Below, piece after piece: positions 14,009 to 64,000 of a stretch of DNA of 64,000 nt. The translations under genes and the position numbers were made by a program. Origin of the DNA: Hwanghaeella sp. GTDB lineage: Bacteria; Pseudomonadota; Alphaproteobacteria; UBA8366; Aestuariispiraceae. The first letter of the stretch is position 1. Each line of letters starts with the position of its first letter. The DNA is taken from contig NZ_OZ245754.1 of assembly GCF_965227365.1 (NCBI RefSeq), positions 2,462,777 to 2,526,776 of the forward strand, written 5' to 3'. The notes beneath the pieces were generated by a model. The model had not been told where the DNA came from. It searched no databases and saw only the letters and a program-made list of their open reading frames with translations.

Positions 14009-15241
14009 TCAGTCGAGCGCGGTGAGAACGGATTCGAACTGCTCCAGGCACCAGTCGACCTGCCCGCGGTCGATCACCAATGGCGGTGCGATGCGGATCG
14101 AATGCTCATGCGTGTCCTTGCAGAGGATTCCCTTGTCCTTCAAAGCCTCGCAATAGCGCCGCGCGCCGCCAGCTTCCGGATCCAGTTCGACGGCGATCAT
14201 CAATCCGCGGCCGCGTACCTCACGCACCGCATTGGCGCGAATGCCTTCCAGGCTTTCCTTGAGATAGGCCCCCTGCTTGGCGGAGTTCTCGATCATTCCC
14301 TCCTCGACAAGGACCCGCATGGCGGTGCGCGCAATGGCGCAGGCCAACGGGTTGCCGCCGAAGGTGGACCCGTGCTGCCCAGGCTGCAAAACGCCGAGGA
14401 CGTCACTGTTAGAGAGTACGGCCGAGACCGGATAGAACCCACCCGACAGGGCCTTCCCGACCAAGGTCACATCCGCCACAATCCCCTCATGCTCTTCGGC
14501 GAGCAGTTTGCCGGTCCGACCCAGGCCCGTCTGAATTTCATCGAGGATCAGCGTGATGTTGCGTTCGGTGCAGATCTCGCGGACCTGCCGCAGGTAACCC
14601 TCGGGCGGGATGATGACGCCGGCTTCGCCCTGGATCGGTTCGACCAGGAAGGCGACGGTATTGTCTGTGATCGCCGCCTTGAACGCCTCGATGTCTCCGA
14701 ACGCGGCGACCCTGAAGCCGGGCGCAAAGGGACCGAATCCGCCGCGAGCCACGGGATCGGTGGAAAACCCGACCACCCCCAGCGTACGGCCGTGGAAATT
14801 GTTTGAGCAGACGATAATCTCCGCCTTGTCCTCGGGCACGCCCTTTACTTCATAGCCCCATTTCCGGACCGCCTTGATGGCGCTTTCCACCGCTTCCGCA
14901 CCGGAATTCATCGGCAGAACCTTGTGGGACCCGGTCAGTTCCGCGATTTCCTCGTAAAAAGGCGCCAGTTGATCGTTCCGGAAGGCGCGCGAGGTCAGCG
15001 TCAGCTTTCCGGCCTGTTCGACCATGGTTTCCAGAATCTTCGGATGGCAGTGGCCCTGGTTCACCGCCGAATAGGCGGACAGGCAATCCAGATACCGGTT
15101 ACCGTCCACGTCCCACAGATACACCCCTTCGCCGCGGCTGAGCACGACATCGATCGGCTTGTAGTTATGCGCGCCGAGAAGCTTTTCCGTCCGGATCAAT
15201 TGGTCTGCGACGCCGGTTTCCTGCATGGCTGCGGAAGGCAT
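14009..15241 (-). CDS. rocD: ornithine--oxo-acid aminotransferase
   Basis: 410 aa class-III aminotransferase. OAT-like [14 protein letters not shown] (PLP Lys). Adjacent to the arginase gene. Confidence 0.87.
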
Positions 15242-15285: not shown

Positions 15286-16260
15286 TCAGGCCGCGTAGGT
15301 CCAATCTGGGCCCTGCATGCGGTTAACGTCCTGCGGGGCGCGGTCGATGATCTTCTTGCCGAACAAACTGGTGACCAGATCGACGAGCAGAAGAGAGGTC
15401 TTCCCACGCTCGTCCAGGAAGGGGTTCAACTCCGCCAGATCCATCGAGGTGACCAATTCGGAATCGCTCAGCATCTCCATGATCAGATGCGCTTCGCGAT
15501 AGGTCGCGCCGCCCGGCACGGTGGTACCGACCGCCGGCGCGATCGAAGGATCGAGAAAATCGACATCCAGGCTGACATGCAGCATGGCGTCGCGCATCTC
15601 CACCTCTTCCAAGATACCGCCGATCAGATAGGAAACCCCCTTCTCGTCGATCAGGCGCATATCCATCACCGATACGCCGCGGCGGGACAGCAACTGCCGT
15701 TCCATCCGGTCGACCGAGCGGATGCCGAACAGATGAAAATCGGCGGGCGCGACGCCCACCCGGTCCATACCCTCGAAGACGAATTCCATGCCCGGCTCGC
15801 CGCACAGGCCGGCGACCGGCATGCCGTGAATGTTCCCGCTGGGTGTGGTTTCGGGCGTGTTGTAATCGGAATGCGCATCGAGCCACAGAACGACAAGATC
15901 GCGTTCCTGATCGCGCGCACGCCGCGCCATCGCATTGATCGTCCCCAGGGCCATGCTGTGATCCCCGCCCATGAAGATCGGGAATTTGTTTCCTTGCGAG
16001 ATTTCATAGGCTTTCGCGTCGGCGGCCCTGGACCAGGCCGTAACCTCGAGGGTTCGGTTCGGCTGCGGCGCGATGACGACATCGCCCGCATCCTCGACCT
16101 GATGTCCCAGGTCCCGCAGCGATTCGGCCAGCCCGGCGGTACGCAGCGCCGCCGGCCCCATCGCGCAACCGCGCAACTGCGTGCCCGCCTGAATGGGCAG
16201 ACCGAGCAGCACGATGTCCGCTGCGCTCTGTTCCGCCCCGGATTGGATGTCGGCTGTCAT
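15286..16260 (-). CDS. rocF: arginase (ureohydrolase family)
   Basis: ATG at 16260 (MTADIQSG...). Motifs GGDHSMALG, WLDAHSDYNTP, SGNIHGMP and SLDVDFLDP. The longer ORF to 16605 overlaps the lrp gene and is rejected. Confidence 0.85.
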   Translation of the reverse strand: MTADIQSGAEQSAADIVLLGLPIQAGTQLRGCAMGPAALRTAGLAESLRDLGHQVEDAGDVVIAPQPNRTLEVTAWSRAADAKAYEISQGNKFPIFMGGDHSMALGTINAMARRARDQERDLVVLWLDAHSDYNTPETTPSGNIHGMPVAGLCGEPGMEFVFEGMDRVGVAPADFHLFGIRSVDRMERQLLSRRGVSVMDMRLIDEKGVSYLIGGILEEVEMRDAMLHVSLDVDFLDPSIAPAVGTTVPGGATYREAHLIMEMLSDSELVTSMDLAELNPFLDERGKTSLLLVDLVTSLFGKKIIDRAPQDVNRMQGPDWTYAA

Positions 16261-16277
16261 GGGTATTTCCTCTCGGC

Positions 16278-16294
16278 AATGCTCATACAGCATT
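16278..16294. promoter_or_regulatory. inverted repeat AATGCT-N5-AGCATT in the arginase/lrp divergent region (candidate operator)
   Basis: Perfect 6-bp arms inside the AT-rich 127-bp intergenic region. Confidence 0.3.
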
Positions 16295-16387
16295 TGTACG
16301 ACAGGGATATGACGGCATATAGTCGGATAATTGTGCATTTTTTCTATCAAACTGACCAAATTGACGATCAATAATAGGCATATTGGC

Positions 16388-16810
16388 ATGGATGATCTGG
16401 ACAACGCCTTGATATCGCTCTTGCGCGCGGATGCCCGCAGTCCCGTCTCCAGCTTGGCGCAGCGCCTGAACGTATCGCGCGCGACGGTAAAGGCGCGGAT
16501 CGACAGATTGGTCGAAACGGGCGTGATCCAGGGCTTCACGATTACGACCGGGACCGAGGCGCCGAGCGGCGTGCGCTCGATCATGATGGTCGAGGTCGAG
16601 GGCAAGGCGGCGGAAACCGTGTTGCGGCGGTTGCGCGGTATTCCGGAGGTCAGGACGATCTATGCGACCAACGGGCGTTGGGACATCGTCGCGGAACTGG
16701 AAACGGCGAATCTTGCCGATTTCGACGAAGTACTTCGGCGCATCCGCCTGATTGACGGAATCGCCGCAACGGAGACCAGTATTCTCCTCGCTTCGCACAA
16801 ACGGACTTGA
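16388..16810 (+). CDS. Lrp/AsnC family transcriptional regulator
   Basis: ATG 16388 (MDDLDNALISLLRADARSPVSSLAQRLNVSRATV). HTH plus a RAM/ACT-like C-terminal domain. Confidence 0.85.
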   Translation: MDDLDNALISLLRADARSPVSSLAQRLNVSRATVKARIDRLVETGVIQGFTITTGTEAPSGVRSIMMVEVEGKAAETVLRRLRGIPEVRTIYATNGRWDIVAELETANLADFDEVLRRIRLIDGIAATETSILLASHKRT

Positions 16811-34104: not shown

Positions 34105-35160
34105 CTAACTCGCCTGCTTTTCCAGGTGGAAACGGCCGAACTGATTGGTCTCCAGCGATCCGTCAGGCAGATCGACATCCTTCAGATATTTGAAGGTCTG
34201 AATGGTCTGCGCCACCAGGTGGTCGCCGGCGGAAATCGGACCGTATCTGGTTTCCGTGCCCGCCTCGATCAATTCCGGTATCGGCGAGACCACGGTCTCG
34301 TAGTCTGTCGCGAAGAACAGCGGAAAGGAATAGCGTTCCTCGTTCACCCGATCGACACGGTGCGAATTGGCCACATAGAGACCGTTCGACCAGTTCTCCA
34401 GCATATCGCCGATATTGATGACGAAGGTGCCTTCCACCGGCGGCGCGTCGACCCATTCGCCGTCATTGCGCAGAACCTGCAGCCCCGGCGCGGTCGGCAG
34501 CAGGATGGTGAAAAGTTCGTAATCCGTGTGGGCGCCTATCCCCATCCGTTTCAGCCGCGCCTGTTCCTCCGCGCTCACCACCTTGTCGGTTTCCCAATAA
34601 TGGATCAGGCGCAACTGGCTGGTCGGCTTTGAAACATGCTTGACGAAAATGTCTTCGGGTAGTCCCAGTCCAAGGGCGAAACCGCGCAGCAAATCCTTGC
34701 CCAGATCCAAAGCCGCCGCGTAATAGCGGTCGACGGCCGCCTTGTGATCGGCCACTTCGTCCGGCCAGACATTCGGGCCGAGCATCCGATTTCCGGCGAG
34801 ATAATCGGGGTCGTCCGCCGGCAGGTCCAGCGCGGTGTCGAAGGCTTCCTTCAAATCGCCGCCGCCTTCGCCGTAGAATTCCTCACCCTGGGGAACATAA
34901 CCGCGATGGTTGGTCGACTTGCCGATATAATAGTCCATCTTGGTTTCGAGCGGCAGAGCGAACAGCGCCTTGGCTGCCTGCTTCAGCCCTTCCACCGTCT
35001 CTTCCGGGATTCCGTGGCCGGCGATATAGACAAAGCCGACATCGCGGGCGGCGCGGTCAAGATCCTTCACCGCCGCCATGCGCTTTTCCGGGTCAGACGA
35101 CCGAAGGCCGGAAACATCCACCAAGGGGATCTCGGAAAAGTTCGTCCGCGCTTTGGCCAT
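34105..35160 (-). CDS. 2-oxoglutarate/Fe(II)-dependent oxygenase, isopenicillin-N-synthase/EFE family (paralogue A)
   Basis: 351 aa. Facial triad GIGAHTDYE ... SHRV, and RYSFPLF (2OG-binding Arg-x-Ser). Confidence 0.85.
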   Translation of the reverse strand: MAKARTNFSEIPLVDVSGLRSSDPEKRMAAVKDLDRAARDVGFVYIAGHGIPEETVEGLKQAAKALFALPLETKMDYYIGKSTNHRGYVPQGEEFYGEGGGDLKEAFDTALDLPADDPDYLAGNRMLGPNVWPDEVADHKAAVDRYYAAALDLGKDLLRGFALGLGLPEDIFVKHVSKPTSQLRLIHYWETDKVVSAEEQARLKRMGIGAHTDYELFTILLPTAPGLQVLRNDGEWVDAPPVEGTFVINIGDMLENWSNGLYVANSHRVDRVNEERYSFPLFFATDYETVVSPIPELIEAGTETRYGPISAGDHLVAQTIQTFKYLKDVDLPDGSLETNQFGRFHLEKQAS

Positions 35161-37472: not shown

Positions 37473-37537
37473 GCAATATTTTTTGCACTGCAACACTTCC
37501 CTTTTTCTGTCCCGCAGGTATACTTTCTATTCAAAGA

Positions 37538-37645
37538 TTGCGGCTAGGGTTCCGATCGTCATCACGGCGGTGTCTGGACCGAGAGCTGACGCCTGGTCCA
37601 TCAACAGACCGGGTCCACGGCGGGATAAAAGCCCGGGAGGTCATG
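37538..37645 (+). promoter_or_regulatory. guanidine-I riboswitch (ykkC-yxkD class) aptamer
   Basis: Conserved blocks are in the right order and spacing: CTAGGGTTCCG (37544-54), TGGACCGAGAG (37575-85), CACGGCGGGATAAAAGCCCGGGAGG (37616-40). Lies in the 300-nt leader of the DUF1989/carboxylase operon. Confidence 0.85.
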
Positions 37646-38681: not shown

Positions 38682-39323
38682 ATGACCACATTGAGCAACC
38701 TGCAACCGGACACCGCCAAACAACGCCTTAAAGTGCCGGCAAACGCCCCCTTCTCCGCCATCGTGAAGAAGGGGCAGACCATTCGCATCGTCGACAGTTT
38801 CGGCCAACAGGCCGTCGACACCCTATTCTACAACGCCGCGGATACGGACGAGCGCTATTCCGCGCATGACACGGTCGCCGCCCAAGGCGCCGCCTATATC
38901 ACCACCGGATCCAAGGTGCTTTCCAACGAAGGCAACCTGATGTTGACGGTAACCGCGGATACGGTCGGCTATCACGACACATCCGCCGGCGCGTGTTCGG
39001 TTGAATCGAACACGGTTCGCTTCGGCCACCACACGCGCTTCATGCATGCCTGTCGCGAGAACTTCGTTCTGGAAGCCGCGAAATACGGCATGGACAAGCG
39101 AGACATCGTTCCCAACATCAACTTTTTCATGAACGTCCCGATCGAGCCGGACGGCAATCTCGCCATCGTCGACGGCTTGTCGGAACCCGGCAACTATGTG
39201 GAGTTGAAGGCCGAGATGGATGTGATCTGCCTCATCTCGAACTGTCCGCAGGTGAACAATCCCTGCAACGGGTTCAATCCAACGCCGATCGAAATCCTGA
39301 TCTGGGATCGAGAACCGGCATGA
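38682..39323 (+). CDS. urea-carboxylase-associated DUF1989 protein 2 (carboxyguanidine deiminase subunit-like)
   Basis: 213 aa. Motif KGQTIRIVDSFGQQAVD...ERYSAHDT...DTVGYHDTSAGACS. 4-bp overlap with the carboxylase gene. Confidence 0.8.
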   Translation: MTTLSNLQPDTAKQRLKVPANAPFSAIVKKGQTIRIVDSFGQQAVDTLFYNAADTDERYSAHDTVAAQGAAYITTGSKVLSNEGNLMLTVTADTVGYHDTSAGACSVESNTVRFGHHTRFMHACRENFVLEAAKYGMDKRDIVPNINFFMNVPIEPDGNLAIVDGLSEPGNYVELKAEMDVICLISNCPQVNNPCNGFNPTPIEILIWDREPA

Positions 39324-42300
39324 TCAACAAAGTCCTCATCGCCAACCGGGGAGAGATCGCCGTCCGGATCATCCGGACCTTGCGGGAAATGGGTCTCCCC
39401 TCGGTGGCTGTCTATTCCGACGCGGATCGCCACGCCGCGCATGTGCGTCTTGCCGATGAAGCGGTTCGGATCGGTCCCGCGCCCGTCACGGACAGTTATC
39501 TAAACCGTGATGCGATCCTAGCCGCCTGCAAACAGACCGGGGCGGACGCGGTTCACCCGGGTTATGGGTTCCTGTCGGAGAACCCGGATTTCGCCGAAAG
39601 CCTGGAAGCGGAAGGGATCCGGTTCATCGGGCCGACGCCGGACCAGATGCGCATTTTCGGTCTGAAGCACAGCGCCCGCGAAGCGGCCGAGAACAGCGGT
39701 GTGCCGCTGCTGCCCGGCAGCGGATTGGTCGATACGCTGGAAGAAGCGAAGGCGGAGGCAGAACGGATCGGCTATCCCGTCATGCTGAAAAGCACCGCGG
39801 GCGGCGGCGGTATCGGCCTGCAATTATGCGAGAGGGCAGAGGATCTGCCGGAACTGTTCGAAACCGTCAGACGGCTCGCGAGGTCCAACTTTTCCGATCC
39901 GGGCATCTTTATCGAAAAATACATCGCCCATGCCCGTCATGTGGAAGTGCAGATCTTCGGCGACGGCAAGGGCCACGTCGTGTCTCTCGGCGAACGTGAC
40001 TGCTCCCTGCAGCGCCGGAACCAGAAGGTCGTCGAGGAAACGCCCGCCCCGAACCTGCCGCAAGCCACCAGGACGGCCCTGATCGATGCCGCTCTATCCC
40101 TCGGGCGGTCCGTCGATTACCGGTCAGCCGGAACGGTGGAATTCATCTATGACGGCAAGGCGGACGAATTCTACTTTCTGGAGGTGAACACCCGCCTGCA
40201 GGTCGAACATCCGGTCACCGAATTGGTCACCGGCGAGGACCTGGTATCCTGGATGGTGAATCTGGCGGCGGACAAGATGGACCTCGCCGCCTATCCCGAC
40301 GTACTGCCGGTGCGCGGCGCGGCCATGGAGGTGCGCGTCTATGCGGAAGACCCGGGCAAGGGATTTCAACCTTCCGCCGGACCGCTCACGCATGTCTCTT
40401 TTCCCGAAGGCGTGCGCGTAGACAGCTGGATAGAGACCGGGTCCGACGTTTCCATGTATTACGACCCGATGCTGGCCAAGGTCATCGTTCATGCGGACAC
40501 CCGGGACGCGGCGGCGGATGCCCTTTCCGACGCGCTGCGGAAATCGGCCATCTACGGCATTGAAACAAACCTGGCCTATCTCAGGGCGATTTCGGAAAGC
40601 GCCATGTTCCGTGCCGGCCATGTCTTCACGAAGGCGCTCGACCGGTTCGACTTCACGCCCAATACCGTCGACGTTCTTGCCCCCGGAACCCATTCGGCAC
40701 TTCAGGATTGGCCGGGACGGGTCGGTTTTTGGGATGTCGGTGTCCCTCCGTCGGGCCCGATGGACGCACTGAATTTCCGGCTGGCCAACGCCTTGCTCGG
40801 CAACGCGCCCGACGCCGCCGGACTGGAAATGACAATGACCGGGCCGACATTGCGGTTCAACCGCGATGCCGTCATCGTGCTGACCGGTGCCGACTTTCAT
40901 GCGAAGCTCGACGGCGACCCGGTCGATTGTTACCGACCAATCTCTATCCATCGCGGTCAAACGCTCAGTCTTGGCAAGGCCGGGGACGGCGGCGTTCGCG
41001 CCTATCTGGCGGTCGCGGGCGGGTTCGATGCGCCGCTCTATCTGGGCAGCCGTGCGACCTTCGATCTGGGCGGCTTCGGCGGACACGCCACCGGGAACTT
41101 GAAAAGCGGCGATGTCCTGCGTCTGACGGATAAGGCGGATGCCCCGGTTCTTCGCGGCGCCCTGCCCGGATCTCATTGGCCGCACTTGCCCGACGATTGG
41201 GAAATCGGCGTGCTTTACGGTCCACATGGCGCGCCGGACTTTTTCACGGATTCGGATATCGAAATCCTGTTCTCGACGCCCTACGAAGTCCATTTCAACA
41301 GCGCCCGCACAGGTGTCCGCCTGATCGGCCCGAAACCCGCATGGGCAAGGCCCGATGGCGGTGAAGCCGGTCTGCATCCATCGAACATCCACGACAATGC
41401 CTATGCCGTCGGGGCCATAGACTTCACCGGGGACATGCCGATCATTCTCGGCCCCGACGGTCCCAGCCTGGGTGGGTTCACCTGTCCCGCCGTCGTCGCC
41501 AAGGCCGAGCTTTGGAAGATGGGACAGTTGCGGCCGGGTGACCGTGTGCGTTTCAAGCGGCTGGCCCTGGCGGAAGCCGAAGCGCTCGAGGAACAGCAGG
41601 AAGCGTTCCTGAACGCCTTGTCCTTCGGCCGGGATGTCGAGCAGGCAGCCCCGCCCTCGCCCAGCATTCTGAAAGCATCCGGGCTGCGGGAGGACGCGGT
41701 CGTCGCCCGCGACGAAACGAATGGTATCGAGATTTGCTACCGCCGGACGGGTGAAGACTTCCTGCTCGTCGAATTCGGCGAACAGGAACTGGACCTGGAT
41801 CTCCGCGTAAAGGCCCATTTGTTGATGCAACGCATCCAGGCCGAAGAAATGGACACCGTCATCGACCTGACGCCGGGTATACGGTCGCTGCAAGTCCATT
41901 TCGACAACCGCCGGGTCAAGCCGAGCGATATGCTCGCCAAACTGCGCGAGTTCCAGAGCGACCTGCCGGCGCTGGACGATGTGATACTGCCGAGCCGGGT
42001 GGTCCATATGCCTTTGTCCTGGGATGACGAAAGCACGCGGATCGCGACGAAACGCTACCAGGACCTGGTCAGGCCCGATGCGCCCTGGTGCCCCTGGAAC
42101 ATCGAATTCATTCGTCGCATCAACGGGCTGGACAGTGTTGACGACGTCAAGAAGGTCGTTTTCGACGCAGATTACATGGTTCTGGGTTTGGGGGATGTCT
42201 ATCTCGGCGCGCCCGTCGCTACACCTGTCGATCCCCGCCATCGCTTGGTCACCACAAAATACAATCCGGCCCGCACCTGGACGCCACAAAACGCGGTCGG

Positions 42301-42946
42301 GATCGGCGGCGCCTATATGTGCGTTTATGGCATGGAAGGGCCTGGTGGGTATCAATTCGTCGGGCGTACCGTTCAGGTCTGGAACACCCATCGCCAAACC
42401 GGGAATTTCAAAGAAGACAAACCCTGGCTTCTGCGTTTCTTCGACCGCATCAAGTTTTACCCCGTCACCAACGAAGAACTCACCGAAATGCGTGACGGCT
42501 TCCTGCATGGAGAAGCGGAACTGAAGATCGAGGACGGCACATTCGACCTGGCCGAGTATCACCGGTTCCGGGCACAAAATGCGACGTCGATCGAGACCTT
42601 CCGAAGCAGGCGTCAAGCCGCCTTCGACGAAGAACGCGCGCGCTGGGAAGCGCAAGGGATCGCGGCCATTGTCGATGAAACCGATCTGGCGCCGGAACCG
42701 GTCGGCGTTGATCTGGCCGACGGCGCCATGCTGATCGAAGCACCGATGAACGGGTCGGTTTGGAAAGTCTCTGTCGAAATCGGTGATCGCATTTCCGCCG
42801 GCGACAAGGTCGCCGTCCTGGAAGCCATGAAGACAGAAATCGCTGTGGATGCAACGCAGGACGGGCACATCACCGATATCCTGTGCAAGCCGGGACAGAT
42901 CGTCCGGCCGGGTGACCCGCTGCTGGTCATTCAAACGGAGGCTTGA
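39320..42946 (+). CDS. uca: biotin-dependent urea/guanidine carboxylase
   Basis: 1208 aa. N-terminal biotin carboxylase (KVLIANRGEIAVRIIRT, MLKSTAGGGGIGL), central KipA/KipI-like carboxyltransferase domains, and a C-terminal biotinyl motif VLEAMKTEI. Confidence 0.92.
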   Translation: MINKVLIANRGEIAVRIIRTLREMGLPSVAVYSDADRHAAHVRLADEAVRIGPAPVTDSYLNRDAILAACKQTGADAVHPGYGFLSENPDFAESLEAEGIRFIGPTPDQMRIFGLKHSAREAAENSGVPLLPGSGLVDTLEEAKAEAERIGYPVMLKSTAGGGGIGLQLCERAEDLPELFETVRRLARSNFSDPGIFIEKYIAHARHVEVQIFGDGKGHVVSLGERDCSLQRRNQKVVEETPAPNLPQATRTALIDAALSLGRSVDYRSAGTVEFIYDGKADEFYFLEVNTRLQVEHPVTELVTGEDLVSWMVNLAADKMDLAAYPDVLPVRGAAMEVRVYAEDPGKGFQPSAGPLTHVSFPEGVRVDSWIETGSDVSMYYDPMLAKVIVHADTRDAAADALSDALRKSAIYGIETNLAYLRAISESAMFRAGHVFTKALDRFDFTPNTVDVLAPGTHSALQDWPGRVGFWDVGVPPSGPMDALNFRLANALLGNAPDAAGLEMTMTGPTLRFNRDAVIVLTGADFHAKLDGDPVDCYRPISIHRGQTLSLGKAGDGGVRAYLAVAGGFDAPLYLGSRATFDLGGFGGHATGNLKSGDVLRLTDKADAPVLRGALPGSHWPHLPDDWEIGVLYGPHGAPDFFTDSDIEILFSTPYEVHFNSARTGVRLIGPKPAWARPDGGEAGLHPSNIHDNAYAVGAIDFTGDMPIILGPDGPSLGGFTCPAVVAKAELWKMGQLRPGDRVRFKRLALAEAEALEEQQEAFLNALSFGRDVEQAAPPSPSILKASGLREDAVVARDETNGIEICYRRTGEDFLLVEFGEQELDLDLRVKAHLLMQRIQAEEMDTVIDLTPGIRSLQVHFDNRRVKPSDMLAKLREFQSDLPALDDVILPSRVVHMPLSWDDESTRIATKRYQDLVRPDAPWCPWNIEFIRRINGLDSVDDVKKVVFDADYMVLGLGDVYLGAPVATPVDPRHRLVTTKYNPARTWTPQNAVGIGGAYMCVYGMEGPGGYQFVGRTVQVWNTHRQTGNFKEDKPWLLRFFDRIKFYPVTNEELTEMRDGFLHGEAELKIEDGTFDLAEYHRFRAQNATSIETFRSRRQAAFDEERARWEAQGIAAIVDETDLAPEPVGVDLADGAMLIEAPMNGSVWKVSVEIGDRISAGDKVAVLEAMKTEIAVDATQDGHITDILCKPGQIVRPGDPLLVIQTEA

Positions 42947-43273: not shown

Positions 43274-44350
43274 ATGGAACTGCCGAAGTATGATGCTAAC
43301 GCCGCCATCCGCCCGACCGATGTCCGCAAGGGCACCGGCTATGCGGCAGAGCGCATCGATTTCGATAGCATCCCCATCGTCGATATCGGTGCGGCGATCA
43401 ACGGAGATCCGGACGGCAAGCAAAGGGCCGCGGCGGCGTTGAGAGAGGCCGCCGCGAATGTCGGTTTCTTCTACATCAAGAACCACGGCGTCCCCGACGA
43501 CGTCATCAGCAAGGCGCAAGCGGCCGCGGATCGTTTCTACGGACTGCCAATAGCGGTGAAATCGCAATACGACGTTGCCAAGGCGAAACGCCACCGGGGC
43601 TATGTTCCGGTCGGCGGTCTCAGCGCCGATCCGACCACTTCCGACCTGCAGGAAGGATACGAGGTCGGCCTGGAAGTGCCTGAGGACGATCCCGACTATC
43701 TATCCGGCAATCCACTGTTCGCGCCGAACAACTGGCCGGCGGAACTACCGGAATTCCGGGCCGACATCTATGCCTATTTCGAAGAGATGATGAAACTCGG
43801 CCGCACGATGTACCGGCTGTTCGCGCTGGCGGTCGGCATGCCGGAAGACTATTTCGACGACAAGGTGACCAAGCCCTGCGCGCAGCTGCGTGTGATGTAC
43901 TACCCGGAGACGGACCCGAAAGACAGCGCGGTCGGCATCGGCGCCCATACGGACTACGAAAGCTTCACTGTGCTCTACCAGTCGGAATCCGGACTGCAGG
44001 TACAGAACCGCGCCGGCGCCTGGATCGAAGCCCCGCCGATCCCCGGTACCTTCATCGTCAACATCGCCGACATGATGATGCGATGGACCAACGAACTTTT
44101 CGTGTCCACACCGCACCGCGTGATCAATACGTCCGGCAGGAAACGCTTCTCCCTGGCGCTGTTCTTTGCGGCTGATTACGACACGGTGGTGGAGTGCCTG
44201 CCTAGTTGCACGAATGCTGACAATCCGCCGAAATATCCGCCGACGCATTTCGGATATTGGATCGAAAACATGCATTCCTATTCCTACGCTTATCGCTGGG
44301 ACGAACGCGGCAAACTGCCGAACCCGGAACTCACGGACACGAGAGGCTGA
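43274..44350 (+). CDS. 2-oxoglutarate/Fe(II)-dependent oxygenase, isopenicillin-N-synthase/EFE family (paralogue B)
   Basis: 358 aa. GIGAHTDYE ... PHRV and RFSLALF. By eye roughly 40% identical to the 34105-35160 product. Confidence 0.85.
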   Translation: MELPKYDANAAIRPTDVRKGTGYAAERIDFDSIPIVDIGAAINGDPDGKQRAAAALREAAANVGFFYIKNHGVPDDVISKAQAAADRFYGLPIAVKSQYDVAKAKRHRGYVPVGGLSADPTTSDLQEGYEVGLEVPEDDPDYLSGNPLFAPNNWPAELPEFRADIYAYFEEMMKLGRTMYRLFALAVGMPEDYFDDKVTKPCAQLRVMYYPETDPKDSAVGIGAHTDYESFTVLYQSESGLQVQNRAGAWIEAPPIPGTFIVNIADMMMRWTNELFVSTPHRVINTSGRKRFSLALFFAADYDTVVECLPSCTNADNPPKYPPTHFGYWIENMHSYSYAYRWDERGKLPNPELTDTRG

Positions 44351-58488: not shown

Positions 58489-58722
58489 TCAATCAAGAAA
58501 GGTCACGATCTCATCGAGAAGTGCGAGGCGTTGTTTCTTGAGTTCCTCAAGATGCATGTCGTCCATCGGCTCGATATTTTCCTCTCCCCGATGAATTTCC
58601 CGATTGATGCGATGATGCGTATCGCAAAGCTTCGCGAAATGGGCATTCTCCGCTTTCAATGCGTGAATGCGATCCGCATGTTCAGGAAACTCCTCGGCGA
58701 TATCGTGCGGTGTATGCGTCAT
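58489..58722 (-). CDS. YdcH/DUF465 family protein
   Basis: ATG 58722. 77 aa with pattern HALKAENAHFAKLCDTHHRINREI...LEELKKQRLALLDEI. Confidence 0.75.
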   Translation of the reverse strand: MTHTPHDIAEEFPEHADRIHALKAENAHFAKLCDTHHRINREIHRGEENIEPMDDMHLEELKKQRLALLDEIVTFLD

Positions 58723-58829: not shown

Positions 58830-59951
58830 TTACAGGTTGGGAAAGTAATCCTCACAGGTGCCTTCGCGATACACATCGGCCGTGCAGCAATGGAGACCGC
58901 CGCCGAAGGCATAGGCGTCCCGCAACTCCACTTCGACCACTTCCATGCCAAGCTTGTCCATTTGCTCGGCCTGATACACCTCGCTCTTTTCGACGCAGAC
59001 CGTTCTTGGGTCAAGAACGAGGACGTTCATGCTGAGCCAGACGGAGGAGTAGCAAAGCGCCGGCGGCTGGTTATGGGCAGGCTGGGCGGCATCGACGATT
59101 TCCCAGCCATTGTCATGGAACATCTTGCGCTGGTCGTCCGGGAGACGACGCTGCGGGTTGTTCAGGATCAGGCCCGGTCGAAGCGGCGTGAAGGTCGCAT
59201 CGATATGAATCGGATACGGATCCCCGGGGAAGTTCACGGCATGGACCCGATGCTCCGGGAAATGCCGCCGCAGCCACTCGATCCCTTTCAGATTGGTCGT
59301 GAAACCATGCTGAACGACAAGGTCTCGTCCGAATCGCAGCACGTCGGCGGCATCGAACAGCGGCTCCTCTTCCGTCGTGACGAAGAATTTTTCCGCTGTC
59401 CATTTCAGCCGTTTTTCCACACCGATCTTTTCCGACAGATAATCCGGCCGGTAATCGGCGTCGGTAAGTCGCGGTTTCGGCGCCGCCTCATGCCGGAAAT
59501 TGGGGTCTTCTTCCCAATAGCGCTGCATCAACGGGCGATAGCATAGATACTCGAACCACCGGCAGCGATAAGACATCGTCGCTTCCAGTATTTCCGGCCC
59601 GACGGTCAACAGCACGTCCCGCGGCGGCATACAGCCGAATTGGCTCGCGGTTTCGAAATCGGGTGTCGTGACCGGTTGAGAAAAGTCTATCGGGGTTGGG
59701 CGGTCGACCCGGATGCCCCGTGCTTTCAACTGCTCGGCAAAGCGGTCCAGCAACTCGTTGGCGCGATCGATTGTTTCCTGCGGGCGTCGACCCCATTGGC
59801 CTCGCATGTCGCTGTCTTCGGGAACCTTGGCATCGAGAGCCGGTTCCTCGGGCGGGATGTGACAGTCATCCGCACGCCCGACAATCACATGACGCAACGG
59901 ATCCCATTCATTCCAACTGTTTACGACCGTTGGTTCGCCTGCCTGCGTCAT
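58830..59951 (-). CDS. glycine/L-arginine amidinotransferase (AGAT/StrB family)
   Basis: ATG 59951. 373 aa, collinear with vertebrate AGAT by eye. Catalytic Asp (FDAADV), His (IHIDATF) and Cys (GGGLHCCTADV) are present. Confidence 0.88.
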   Translation of the reverse strand: MTQAGEPTVVNSWNEWDPLRHVIVGRADDCHIPPEEPALDAKVPEDSDMRGQWGRRPQETIDRANELLDRFAEQLKARGIRVDRPTPIDFSQPVTTPDFETASQFGCMPPRDVLLTVGPEILEATMSYRCRWFEYLCYRPLMQRYWEEDPNFRHEAAPKPRLTDADYRPDYLSEKIGVEKRLKWTAEKFFVTTEEEPLFDAADVLRFGRDLVVQHGFTTNLKGIEWLRRHFPEHRVHAVNFPGDPYPIHIDATFTPLRPGLILNNPQRRLPDDQRKMFHDNGWEIVDAAQPAHNQPPALCYSSVWLSMNVLVLDPRTVCVEKSEVYQAEQMDKLGMEVVEVELRDAYAFGGGLHCCTADVYREGTCEDYFPNL

Positions 59952-60278
59952 ACCTCGACTCCCTCTCCATCCTGGATTTCGGGCATTATCATCACAGGAA
60001 GGGAATGAAAACCGAATTGAGGGAGATTGCGTTCCGCCACAACGCATTACCCCTCCCTGAACAGGAGGCACCACATTCAGCGAGCCCCTATGATAGAAAC
60101 GTAGGGTGCGGGGAAAAATGTCCTCTCTTAGCTCCGGCGAAGCTTGGCTGAAAACCTGGGCTTTCCAGGCCTTGCCAGGCCCTTGTCGCATCATGCACGG
60201 AGCCATAAAATACAGGGGCGGCCTTCGCGAAGCGATAGCCATGCTTGTCGATTTCCCTGTCGGCGCATCCGGCGAAAC

Positions 60279-60293
60279 GCCTGAACGGTGCCA
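60279..60293 (-). promoter_or_regulatory. weak sigma-54-like element upstream of the amidinotransferase
   Basis: Minus strand reads TTGGCAC-cgttc-agGCg. The -24 box is perfect. The -12 box keeps only the GC. Confidence 0.2.
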
Positions 60294-60338
60294 ACTTCCG
60301 GCACCGCTCTTAGTCACTCTCTGAAGGCATTGGTCCAA

Positions 60339-61289
60339 ATGTCGCGTATTGATTGGGATCATCTTCGATACGTCCTTGCGCTTGGTCGCGCCGGCACGCT
60401 TTTGGGCGCGGCCGAAATGCTCGGCGTCAATCATACGACGGTGCTGCGGCGTCTCGATGCTCTCGAGAGCCAACTCAGCACTAGGTTGTTCGACAGGCAA
60501 CGCACCGGTTACGAGCCGACCGATGCCGGCTTGACCCTTCTCGAGAAGGCGCGATCCATGGAGCAGAAGGCCGATGAGATCGAACGGCAGATCCTCGGCG
60601 CCGACCGGACGCTCGAGGGGCCTCTACGCGTCGTGACCGCCTTCGCGGTCATGGAGCACCTCTTGGCGGAGCCCCTTGCCGAATTCGTCAGAGCCTATCC
60701 AAGCATCGAGGTCGAAGTGGTCGAGAACGCGGTCCTCAGCGATCTTTCGAGCCGCCGCATCGACCTTGCCCCCACCTCCAACAGACGCGAGGCGGACGTT
60801 GCCGTACGCCTGTCCGCTCAGGTTTCGGAACACCTGTTCGGCCGGCAACTCGGCATGACGCAATACGCCGTATACGCATTGCGGGGGGAAAACACGCTGC
60901 CGCAGGTAATCACGCCGGTGGAGACATTGATCCGGACCGCGCCCTGGGTGACCTTCGAACTGGACCCTGCGACGCGGGTCTACGACAGGTGGACGCAAAC
61001 CAACCTGGCGGAGGCAAATGTCGTCGCCCGCGTTGATTTCTTCAATGCAAAGGCGGCAATGCTGCGGACAGGCATCGGCGTGGGATTCCTACCGACATTC
61101 ATGGAGAAAAACCATCCCGAGTTCATAAGGATATCGGACACGATCCCTGATCTGAGCCTGCCGCTTTGGATCGTGACCCATCCCGACCTGCGCTACACGG
61201 CCAGAGTCCGTACCTTCATGAAATTTGTCGGCGACCTGTTGTCGAAACGACTGTGGAACTTGGCCGAACAGGTCAATGATATCCGCTGA
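60339..61289 (+). CDS. LysR family transcriptional regulator
   Basis: ATG 60339 (MSRIDWDHLRYVLALGRAGTLLGAAEMLGVNHTTVLRRL). Confidence 0.85.
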   Translation: MSRIDWDHLRYVLALGRAGTLLGAAEMLGVNHTTVLRRLDALESQLSTRLFDRQRTGYEPTDAGLTLLEKARSMEQKADEIERQILGADRTLEGPLRVVTAFAVMEHLLAEPLAEFVRAYPSIEVEVVENAVLSDLSSRRIDLAPTSNRREADVAVRLSAQVSEHLFGRQLGMTQYAVYALRGENTLPQVITPVETLIRTAPWVTFELDPATRVYDRWTQTNLAEANVVARVDFFNAKAAMLRTGIGVGFLPTFMEKNHPEFIRISDTIPDLSLPLWIVTHPDLRYTARVRTFMKFVGDLLSKRLWNLAEQVNDIR

Positions 61290-61427
61290 CCGGGAAAAAA
61301 CTCGACGCTACTAGCAAATCCCTCGACGGCCGGCTCCCACCCGCCTCGCCGTAAACGGCCATACGCCCAAGGACGAACACCCGCACGCCGGAATGAGCCG
61401 GACGTGCAGGCGTTAATCCTTCGTTCC

Positions 61428-62225
61428 TTAAGCAGGCACTTTTGCCGTCAATAAGCAGTCGTCCGATAGCGGTACAAGCGGACTATGGTCGCGATTGTTG
61501 TGGTACTCGGCCCGCTTCTGCTTCGTTGGTGCGTTTTTCACCGAATTTGCATTGATGAACAGCAACGTGCGCGGCCAAGGCGTAACATTGCCGGCCGACG
61601 CGTGAAGCAGATTGCAGTTGATAAAGACAGCCGTGCCAGCTTTGCCGGTCAGAGATTCTATACCATTCTCGTCGGCAAGACGTTTTACCGTGTCGCCCTT
61701 TACCTCCATGACGGTATAGCCTGTCTTGTCGGGGTCGGCCGCCGTATCCTCGATCTCACCCAGGCGATGAGATCCCGGAATTACCAACATTGGCCCGGCC
61801 GTTTCCAGAATGTCATCCAGGAACACGGCGATCATCAACGCATTGGGCGTAGGCATCCCGTCTTCGTAATGCCACGTTCCGTAATCCTGATGCCACCAGA
61901 ATCCTTCTCCATCAAATCCACGCTTGGGGTTGATGCGAAGCTGATGAATATAGACGTCGTCGCCGACCAATTGCTTGGCCACCTCAATCCAACGCGGATG
62001 CCGTGAAAGTTTGTAGAACTCATCGGTATACTTGTCCGCACCGTAGATCAGCCGGGGAGCCTTTCCATTCTTTTCCATGGCAACCTCAGGGCGATCCAGA
62101 TGCTTGTCCAGTATCTCATCCAAACCGTGTTTCAATACCGCGACCTCCTCGGCAGTAAAGAGCCCTTCCTTCGTCAGGTAGCCTCTGGCGTTGTATTCAT
62201 CGACTTCTTCCTTCGAGAGATTCAT
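61428..62225 (-). CDS. phytanoyl-CoA dioxygenase (PhyH) family Fe(II)/2OG oxygenase, ectoine-hydroxylase-like
   Basis: 265 aa. FWWHQDYGTWHYEDGMP resembles the EctD signature F-x-WHSDFETWH-x-EDG-M/L-P. Distal His in CNLLHAS. Confidence 0.8.
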   Translation of the reverse strand: MNLSKEEVDEYNARGYLTKEGLFTAEEVAVLKHGLDEILDKHLDRPEVAMEKNGKAPRLIYGADKYTDEFYKLSRHPRWIEVAKQLVGDDVYIHQLRINPKRGFDGEGFWWHQDYGTWHYEDGMPTPNALMIAVFLDDILETAGPMLVIPGSHRLGEIEDTAADPDKTGYTVMEVKGDTVKRLADENGIESLTGKAGTAVFINCNLLHASAGNVTPWPRTLLFINANSVKNAPTKQKRAEYHNNRDHSPLVPLSDDCLLTAKVPA

Positions 62226-62253
62226 GTCATTCCTCCTTTTTATGGACGGTACA

Positions 62254-63003
62254 CTAGAGACTTATGCCGCCATCAATCGAATACATGCATCCTGTGACGA
62301 AGGCCGACTCGTCGGATACAAGATAGACGATGAGCGGCGCGATATCTTCAGGCATGCCCAACTGCCCCATCGGCTGCCTCGCGGCGAATGCCTCCATTGC
62401 CTTTTCGGCATCCCCCATGCGGGACAGCCGTTCTCGCAAGGATGGCGAGTCCACGATGCCGGGGCATACAGCATTGCACCGTATTCCGTCGCGAATGAAA
62501 TCGATGGCAATCGCCTTGGTGATGCCCAGGATCGCCGCCTTGCTCGCGGAATACGCAAATCTGTTGGGCACGCCTTTCACGGTCGAGGCCATCGACGACA
62601 TGTTGACGATACTGCCCGTTCCGCGCGCCAGCATGCCCGGAAGAAACGCCTTGATCACACGATAGGTGCCCGTCCCGTTGATATCTTGAGTCCGGTCCCA
62701 CTCCTCTTCCGAGCAATCGAGGATCGTTCCCTCGGACACGTATCCCGCGCAGTTGAAAAGAGCGTCAACCGGCCCGACCGCCTCTGCGACCTCCTGAACG
62801 CGGCGACTGTCGGTCACATCCATGACCTCACCGATCACGCCTTCAACCCCCCGCAGCCTTTCCACCGACACGGGGTCCTTGTCCGTCGCCACGACCGCCG
62901 CGCCTTCCCTTATCATCGCCAAGGCGCTGGCAAGACCGATCCCCTGGCCAGCACCGGTGACGAATATGCGCTTACCGGATAATCTGCCACACCCGTGTTC
63001 CAC
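62254..63003 (-). CDS. SDR family oxidoreductase
   Basis: GTG 63003 with GGGGAGGG SD (TTG 63036 is an alternative). TGAGQGIG, YSASK. Confidence 0.85.
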   Translation of the reverse strand: MEHGCGRLSGKRIFVTGAGQGIGLASALAMIREGAAVVATDKDPVSVERLRGVEGVIGEVMDVTDSRRVQEVAEAVGPVDALFNCAGYVSEGTILDCSEEEWDRTQDINGTGTYRVIKAFLPGMLARGTGSIVNMSSMASTVKGVPNRFAYSASKAAILGITKAIAIDFIRDGIRCNAVCPGIVDSPSLRERLSRMGDAEKAMEAFAARQPMGQLGMPEDIAPLIVYLVSDESAFVTGCMYSIDGGISL

Positions 63004-63017
63004 GCTACGCCCTCCCC

Positions 63018-63815
63018 TCAAGACCTGTTCAGCCAATCGATCAATATCCGATTGAATTCATCGGGCCGTTCGACGTTCGGGAAATGTTGGCAATCGGCGA
63101 TCTCGACATATTTGCCACCTGGGATCATTTCCGACATCCGACGATTTTCGCTGGCGGGCGTCCCCTGATCGTTCGCGCCGCACACCACCAAAGCGGGCGG
63201 CTTCAATTCGCCCAAGCGCCCCGTGAAGTCGAAGCTGCGCACCGCGTGTACGCAACCGAGGAAGCCGGCGACATCCGTCACCAGAATACTCTCGAAGATC
63301 TGACGCCATCGTCCGGGACGCTTTTCCCGAAACTCGGCAGTAAGCCATCGGGCCATGGTACTCTCTGCCAGCGGGGCCAGGGATTGCGCATCCTGCACCG
63401 TCCTCTTGCGTTCAATCCAAACGGACTCGGCGGCGGGAACGGAAGCCGGCAGGGTATCGGCGAACAACGCGGACCGGATCAGGTCCGGATACCGGAGGGC
63501 CAACGACTGCCCCAGCATGCCGCCGATCGACAGACCGACGAAATCGACCGGCCCGATATCCAGGGCAGTGATGACATGGGCGGCATCGTCAGCGAGCTCA
63601 TCCATCGTATAGTCGCCGAAGACGGTTTCGCTGGCTCCGTGGCCGCGCATGTCTACGCGGAGCACTCTGTAACCGGAGGCCAGCAATTCGGGAACCTGTT
63701 CAGCCCACATCGAACTGTCCGCAGTCAAGGAATGCGCGAGGCAAACCGTTTGTGCGGCGCCCTCGGGTCCGAGGAGATCGAAGTACAATCTTCGATTTTC
63801 TTTCGGAAGGAACAT
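63018..63815 (-). CDS. alpha/beta hydrolase (3-oxoadipate enol-lactonase-like)
   Basis: 265 aa. HSLTADS region, nucleophile elbow GLSIGG, C-terminal His (CQHFPNVE). Confidence 0.82.
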   Translation of the reverse strand: MFLPKENRRLYFDLLGPEGAAQTVCLAHSLTADSSMWAEQVPELLASGYRVLRVDMRGHGASETVFGDYTMDELADDAAHVITALDIGPVDFVGLSIGGMLGQSLALRYPDLIRSALFADTLPASVPAAESVWIERKRTVQDAQSLAPLAESTMARWLTAEFREKRPGRWRQIFESILVTDVAGFLGCVHAVRSFDFTGRLGELKPPALVVCGANDQGTPASENRRMSEMIPGGKYVEIADCQHFPNVERPDEFNRILIDWLNRS

Positions 63816-64000
63816 TTGCGTTTCCCCTCAATTGTCGAGCGATCTTCACCGACATCAATTTCCCTCCGGCACCGTTCCGAAGGCGGACATACCACGCATC
63901 AATTTTTTTTCAGGAACAATGCGGAATACTGCAAGAGAACCTTGCATCTTTGCACAGTGACGGCTGCGGCGAAGGGGCCCCGGTGATGTGCAAACAAAAA

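Follow-up and report, generated by a model that had tools for sequence, protein, structure and literature searches.

A predicted AGAT-family amidinotransferase of Hwanghaeella sp. with a separate leader and a probable relation to creatine and guanidinoacetate metabolism

A stretch of 64,000 nucleotides from Hwanghaeella sp. (contig NZ_OZ245754.1, positions 2,462,777 to 2,526,776, here called the window) was analysed with respect to a gene predicted to encode an amidinotransferase of the glycine amidinotransferase (AGAT, GATM) family, which lies divergent from a gene for a LysR-family regulator. On balance, a joint reading is favoured in which the product is an AGAT-family enzyme serving nitrogen acquisition from creatine or guanidinoacetate, the gene carries a leader particular to its own lineage, and the half of the intergenic region next to the LysR gene is a separate unit. 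Orthologous genes repeatedly adjoin, or share an operon with, a creatinase gene, and the two genes have a common 5' leader; the likeliest role would therefore be to supply nitrogen from creatine or guanidinoacetate.

Identity of the enzyme

The gene and the residues discussed below were located as follows.

58830-59951, minus strand: AGAT-type amidinotransferase coding sequence, 373 aa; catalytic triad C355/H249/D200; substrate-binding residues D112, D251, R268 and S303; flap residues Y246 and I248

When the predicted protein was compared with the PDB by phmmer, human AGAT (1jdw) was the best match (E=2e-85, 290 bits), with query residues 9-370 aligned to chain residues 65-422 at 44% identity over 354 aligned columns. 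Human residues D170, D254, H303, D305, R322, S355 and C407 were all kept, as D112, D200, H249, D251, R268, S303 and C355, respectively. The protein therefore shares with the vertebrate enzyme its collinearity over the full length, the triad Cys407/His303/Asp254, the Asp170/Asp305 guanidino clamp, Arg322 and Ser355. The triad residues C355, H249 and D200 were invariant in 23 clade members, and the guanidino- and carboxylate-binding residues D112, D251, R268 and S303 were likewise invariant in the clade. A preliminary description of this DNA, made from the sequence alone, had described the protein as collinear with glycine amidinotransferase with the Asp, His and Cys residues intact, and the comparison bore this out.

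The guanidino-modifying superfamily also offers the possibility of a hydrolytic enzyme of the ADI/DDAH/ArgZ type (arginine deiminase, ADI) in place of a transferase. The weak matches to the Pfam ADI and NCBIfam DDAH models would speak for this, but all matches to ADI and DDAH models in the two databases were marginal (17-25 bits), compared with a full-length match of 290 bits to AGAT. The Pfam ADI match was barely above its cut-off (24.6 vs 22.8 bits) and covered the C-terminal 56 residues only, and the NCBIfam DDAH and ADI scores were far under their cut-offs. Amidinotransferases of this superfamily have a five-fold pseudosymmetric beta/alpha-propeller fold. An AlphaFold model was also made; its confidence was low (pLDDT 58.7, pTM 0.67) because the alignment was shallow, and it served for ranking only. 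With this low-confidence model, Foldseek placed AGAT on top (TM 0.73-0.76) and the transferases AGAT, HsvA, SxtG and StrB1 together at TM 0.67-0.76, with the hydrolases DDAH, ADI and ArgZ far behind at 0.4-0.5. The preliminary description had named placement with ADI/DDAH-type hydrolases as the outcome that would overturn its assignment; transferases ranked above hydrolases in both similarity and Foldseek, and its choice of an AGAT-type amidinotransferase stands. A hydrolase is thus very improbable. Similarity and residue conservation, alongside the fold ranking from the low-confidence model, identify the gene as one for a Cys-His-Asp amidinotransferase of the AGAT family (GATM, KEGG K00613-type).

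Distribution, constraint and naming of the family

A protein search at E<1e-20 returned 3,520 family clusters. The best 120 of these 3,520 were 78-90% identical and came from Rhodobacteraceae, Rhizobiales and unclassified marine Alphaproteobacteria. Orthologues were present in thousands of marine Alphaproteobacteria (Rhodobacterales, SAR116 and Rhizobiales); the window copy belongs to a Hwanghaeella-like bacterium of the Rhodospirillales. Amino-acid identity within the family was 79-94%; third codon positions were merely 29-55% identical, and their GC content (GC3) ranged from 0.16 to 0.84, following the host. Purifying selection on this old family is very strong. Recent horizontal transfer was considered as the cause of the identity of at least 90% seen across orders and was rejected, since synonymous sites were saturated, GC3 followed the host and the GC content of the gene matched that of its surroundings.

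Across alphaproteobacterial orders, AGAT was more strongly constrained than the H+-pyrophosphatase that its own genome encodes. The former was 88-94% identical to copies in other orders, and the latter, also encoded in the window, was ~80% identical to its counterparts in other Alphaproteobacteria and 97% identical to that of Hwanghaeella grinnelliae (Rhodospirillales, Aestuariispiraceae).

Naming of the family was found to differ between databases, with JGI using glycine amidinotransferase and NCBI using 'serine/threonine protein kinase' (e.g. P0002, P0005 and P0013). The kinase label is a mislabel; no domain or structural match backs it. A study of a North Sea bloom counted GATM (K00613) among taurine-related genes, by annotation only (bioRxiv 10.1101/2024.12.10.627767). 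No paper giving a tested function for this bacterial AGAT clade, or for its leader, was found in the literature searched. In terms of family membership the locus is an ordinary representative of a known enzyme family, with nothing unusual here.

Genomic context of orthologous genes

The surroundings of orthologous genes were compared in 80 genome and 80 metagenome loci (160 in all, L001-L160; 165 loci were fetched overall). Clustering of the neighbouring open reading frames (ORFs) showed variable surroundings, with AGAT usually solitary. The only recurrent specific partner was a protein with Creatinase_N and Peptidase_M24 domains, encoded within 3.5 kb in 19 of the 160 loci and, in nine of those 19, located 4-21 bp upstream on the same strand. 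As it matched creatine amidinohydrolase (1chm) with E=3e-160, this partner was taken to be a true creatinase. In one locus (L156) the gene order was EamA transporter, creatinase, AGAT. Rarer neighbours were a GcvT/DmdA-like aminomethyltransferase and a threonine-aldolase-like pyridoxal phosphate (PLP) enzyme. None of the 160 loci had the window's own neighbours (LysR, PhyH, SDR, hydrolase, DUF465, flavoprotein) beside AGAT. The creatinase partnership points to a function in creatine or guanidinoacetate metabolism rather than in the guanidine system that lies 14 kb away in the window.

The context also bears on whether the enzyme starts a natural-product pathway, as do CyrA, SxtG, AmtA, HsvA and StrB1. 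All belong to one enzyme family with the same catalytic machinery (CyrA and AmtA as known from the literature), and the window protein gave full-length phmmer matches to HsvA (E=4e-66, 227 bits), SxtG (4e-63, 217 bits) and StrB1 (2e-52, 182 bits). However, these scores are lower than the 290 bits for vertebrate AGAT, no PKS, NRPS or other biosynthetic genes were found nearby in the window or in the 160 loci, and the gene is single-copy and solitary with housekeeping-like constraint. A natural-product role can accordingly be given hardly any weight.

A structured leader shared by AGAT and creatinase genes

Directly upstream of the AGAT ATG, a strongly conserved leader of ~130 nt was present in 16 genome and four metagenome loci from Rhodobacteraceae and SAR116 (L065:5872-6003, L078:5851-5982, L073:5874-6003 and 17 other loci). 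In order, it comprised a hairpin GGCGAUGGCGUCGCC, a variable hairpin, an invariant UCCUGNACGCCGGGAC, a long hairpin and a pairing between the Shine-Dalgarno sequence (SD) and an anti-SD. A covariance model, R1, was built here from the leaders of these relatives. The model also matched upstream of creatinase genes, at L025:9119-9259(-), L073:8461-8555(-), L051:9570-9661(-), L069:8497-8650(-), L132:5942-6050(-) and L029:5623-5735(-), and R1 cores were recognized by eye in the creatinase leaders of L010 and L086, giving eight creatinase genes in all.

Between the AGAT and creatinase copies the R1 hairpins changed in sequence while the pairing stayed, with six compensatory pairs, a number that 0 of 500 shuffles reached. 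In the creatinase copies, pairing is possible between the SD GGAGGUC and the GACCUC that comes after the invariant core. The leaders of the relatives matched no family in Rfam 15. R1 looks like a translational riboswitch or leader common to AGAT and creatinase genes and is a candidate for a new riboswitch class connected with creatine/guanidinoacetate metabolism.

The window was searched for the same arrangement (hairpin GGCGAUGGCGUCGCC, UCCUGNACGCCGGGAC and the P3 hairpin upstream of an SD), and the best R1 score with filters off was 5.5 bits; pattern searches of the window for the invariant cores gave matches at chance level only. The window copy and the K00613-annotated GATM homologues of marine Rhodobacteraceae, SAR116 and Rhizobiales form one orthologous group, with the identity range given above and equal length and N-terminus. 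The window copy differs in its Rhodospirillales genome, its LysR neighbour and the lack of both a creatinase neighbour and an R1 leader.

Boundaries of the gene and of the intergenic region

The features that delimit the locus were as follows.

59968-59959, minus strand: SD GGAGAGGGAG, 7 nt ahead of the AGAT ATG
60339-61289, plus strand: LysR-family regulator, 316 aa, with HTH_1 and LysR_substrate domains, divergent from AGAT
58489-58722, minus strand: small DUF465 (YdcH-like) gene, 107 nt downstream of AGAT

The minus-strand ORF spans 60500 to 58830, and its conserved part begins at the ATG at 59951-59949. This start agrees with those of 79 orthologues, whose N-termini lie 3-9 residues ahead of a VNSWNEWD motif. 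For the LysR gene, the ATG at 60339 was accepted as the start, an identical 316-aa product being recorded as P0121; a GTG at 60288 was ruled out by this same record. With the LysR ATG at 60339, the gap between the two genes is therefore 59952-60338, or 387 bp, the length that the preliminary description had given.

On the other side of AGAT, no terminator-like site was found before the DUF465 gene, and the AGAT gene of the window is solitary or, possibly, co-transcribed with it. The DUF465 gene was not detected beside AGAT in other loci, at tblastn thresholds that are insensitive for so short a protein.

The LysR-proximal half of the gap

The following features were assigned to this half of the gap and to the genes beyond it.

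60283-60309, strandless: dyad GAACGGTGCC-N7-GGCACCGCTC, with the perfect 7-bp CGGTGCC-N7-GGCACCG at 60286-60306 and the core GTG-N11-CAC; candidate LysR operator or LysR 5'-untranslated region (UTR) element
60183-60211, plus strand: sigma-70-like promoter candidate for LysR, TTGTCG-17-TAAAAT; its TTGTCGC block is also kept ahead of the LysR gene in L161
61428-63815, minus strand: PhyH-type (EctD/GriE-like) dioxygenase, SDR and alpha/beta hydrolase, conserved with LysR (PhyH 94% identical at the amino-acid level in L161) and not part of an AGAT unit

The gap had been presented in the preliminary description as a single leader and divergent control region of AGAT. This could not be upheld, as the closest relatives of the LysR gene keep the PhyH-SDR-hydrolase genes without AGAT and the 160 AGAT loci lack this LysR. 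In these relatives (L161, L162 and L164) the LysR protein was 85-90% identical and encoded in a block of LysR, PhyH, SDR and hydrolase genes, and the other flank held a sigma-54 activator and a peptide ABC transporter in the place of AGAT. Nucleotide homology between the window and these loci was confined to 60337-63827. A MAFFT alignment of the LysR-upstream regions showed weak homology over the proximal 170-200 nt, including the TTGTCGC block, and a GTG-N11-CAC was present at the dyad position in all three aligned sequences, at equal distance from the LysR ATG. The block itself (60339-63815; L161:5001-8474) looks like an amino-acid or ectoine-like hydroxylation or catabolic unit.

The perfect 7-bp dyad reported in the preliminary description beside the LysR gene was present and can be lengthened to arms of 10 nt, 90% complementary, around the 7-nt spacer. 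The dyad alone is not beyond chance, since dinucleotide-shuffled versions of the region contained a perfect 7-bp dyad in 26% of cases and the 10-nt form in 12%. It reads GGTGCC-N7-GGCACC, that is T-N13-A, and does not conform to the canonical T-N11-A box of LysR-type transcriptional regulators (LTTRs). The sigma-54-like box noted earlier (TGGCACCGTTCAGGCG) was likewise found, with 8 of 11 positions of the consensus TGGCAC-N5-TTGCW; it is one arm of the dyad as seen on the minus strand. A scan of a subset of the window ORFs gave no Sigma54_activat protein.

Because the GTG-N11-CAC is kept upstream of LysR in relatives without AGAT, the dyad is assigned to LysR, and it is most simply read as a candidate operator or 5'-UTR element of that gene. 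The arrangement resembles that of LysR-type regulators with a divergent promoter/operator in its HTH_1 and LysR_substrate domains, its divergent neighbour and a dyad just upstream of the start; it differs in the spacing of the GTG-N11-CAC (T-N13-A) and in that the conserved partners are the PhyH-SDR-hydrolase genes and not AGAT. From these comparisons, the LysR-proximal half appears to be LysR's own promoter/operator, with AGAT placed next to it by a local rearrangement.

The AGAT-proximal leader

59952-60140, minus strand: AGAT-proximal part of the gap, without homologue, Rfam match or R1 match

No homologue of this part was found in the 165 fetched loci, and nucleotide similarity of the whole 387-bp gap to these loci was limited to chance matches. 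The preliminary description had seen no known riboswitch and had proposed a covariance-model scan of the gap. The scan with Rfam 15 (59800-60450, E up to 10) agreed with it, yielding no match in the gap (best E=10). An AGAT sigma-70 promoter like the TTCCCCG-N16-GCTATA of the relatives was also sought and rejected, as the window has TTCCCC-N13-CTATCA, which has the wrong spacing and was unreported by the promoter scan.

The alternative that this leader holds an undescribed, lineage-specific riboswitch or attenuator was weighed against these results. It would act through pairings of GGGAGGGG, CUCCCUC and GAGGGAG at the SD, or through an upstream ORF (uORF). The leader contains three segments able to pair with one another, and the predicted fold masks the SD, which would pair with CUCCCUC at 60019-60025 or with a pyrimidine run at ~59990-60005. 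The whole gap also folded somewhat better than shuffles (z = -2.2), a uORF occurs at 59948-60040, and orthologues of other lineages do use a structured leader. On the other side, the 147 nt nearest AGAT folded no better than shuffles (z = -1.4), neither Rfam nor R1 gave a match, and the uORF begins with GTG and has no SD. Owing to the lack of a homologue in the 165 loci, there was no covariation evidence for the leader. Such a regulatory RNA is considered decidedly unlikely. The uORF in question has 30 codons on the minus strand, with a stop that overlaps the AGAT start (ATGA), and it had no comparative support.

Under the favoured reading, the untranslated region ahead of the window AGAT would be peculiar to its lineage, having a strong SD but nothing recognizable as a riboswitch.

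Physiological role

The enzyme is predicted to work by a ping-pong mechanism in which Cys355 would first accept the amidino group from a guanidino donor (arginine <-> ornithine) and a small amine would then receive it. Glycine and guanidinoacetate would most probably be the acceptor and its product. A plausible route for nitrogen use would be the reverse reaction, guanidinoacetate + ornithine -> glycine + arginine, after which arginase would regenerate ornithine and release urea. Vertebrate AGAT works upstream of GAMT in creatine synthesis. The bacterial gene differs from it in being solitary, and the copies of its relatives are linked to a creatine-degrading creatinase; the window protein also has no mitochondrial presequence.

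Several points weigh against this reading. No creatinase lies within 3.5 kb in 141 of the 160 orthologous loci, and in the window the creatinase partner is absent (as are the GcvT-like and aldolase partners). The arginase is 42 kb from AGAT. Asn300 and Met302 of the 300-flap of human AGAT are replaced by Tyr246 and Ile248, which are nearly invariant in the clade. In the structural work on AGAT and CyrA these flap residues shape acceptor specificity, and glycine specificity is not assured because they differ (N300->Y, M302->I). Which way the reaction runs in vivo is conjecture. Finally, there is a small chance that a lineage-specific RNA element does reside in the AGAT-proximal leader.

A more specific proposal may be put forward tentatively, as possible but doubtful. 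The family would form the catabolic half of an 'amidino shuttle' in marine Alphaproteobacteria and would not take part in creatine synthesis. Guanidinoacetate or some other guanidino acid from plankton and animals would donate its amidino group to ornithine, and the arginine formed would be kept or split by arginase, so that nitrogen could be scavenged without a dedicated guanidino-acid hydrolase. In Rhodobacteraceae, AGAT and creatinase would be co-induced by a new creatine/guanidinoacetate riboswitch, and the window copy would be the same enzyme under other control.

Other nitrogen-related genes of the window

The preliminary description had connected AGAT with an arginase, an ornithine aminotransferase (OAT) and a guanidine system, which were located as follows.

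15286-16605, minus strand: arginase (TIGR01229, 285 bits)
14009-15241, minus strand: OAT (TIGR01885, 535 bits), adjoining the arginase
37533-37641: guanidine-I riboswitch, 86 bits; the only Rfam match in the whole window at gathering thresholds
39320-42946: two DUF1989 genes and a urea/guanidine carboxylase, after the riboswitch

All of these genes are in the window, as had been claimed. Their link to AGAT is one of co-location only, and none of the 160 orthologous loci shows it. In that earlier scheme a guanidino compound would be made from arginine, the ornithine would pass to OAT, the product or guanidine derived from it would be mineralized by the guanidine carboxylase, and the divergent LysR would control AGAT through the dyad. 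Apart from the presence of the genes, the scheme can draw on the EFE-like 2-oxoglutarate dioxygenase in the guanidine operon, for which a guanidino amino acid could serve as a source of guanidine, and on the fact that divergent pairs of LysR and target genes are common among LTTRs. Nevertheless, the arginase, OAT and guanidine genes lie 14-43 kb from AGAT. The guanidine operon (37.5-44.4 kb; riboswitch, two DUF1989 genes, carboxylase and the dioxygenase) ends 14 kb before it, with unrelated genes between, namely a molybdopterin oxidoreductase, an AhpF-like reductase, another LysR, an acyltransferase, a fatty-acid hydroxylase, an aldo-keto reductase and a flavoprotein. Also against the scheme, LysR and the dyad core are conserved where a sigma-54 activator replaces AGAT, and the dyad is neither a T-N11-A box nor beyond chance. 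The scheme is therefore regarded as unlikely, and a role in creatine or guanidinoacetate use is preferred.

Two DIOX_N/2OG-Fe(II) dioxygenases were observed in the window, at 43274-44350 (+) and 34105-35160 (-). One of them directly follows the guanidine carboxylase genes controlled by the guanidine-I riboswitch and had the 'ethylene/succinate-forming enzyme' 9ovh as its best PDB match (E=6e-66); this enzyme might hydroxylate a guanidino amino acid and so set guanidine free. The segment 27762-31526, upstream of the guanidine operon, holds a glutamine-synthetase-like gene, a creatininase-family gene and an NMT1-type ABC transporter, which may be a further sign of a region devoted to small nitrogen-rich compounds.

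Significance

The family is among the most conserved proteins of marine Alphaproteobacteria and merits attention. The creatinase link suggests that it helps to turn over creatine and guanidinoacetate, both of them rich in nitrogen and occurring in seawater. If R1 is a new riboswitch class, its ligand would identify the pathway.

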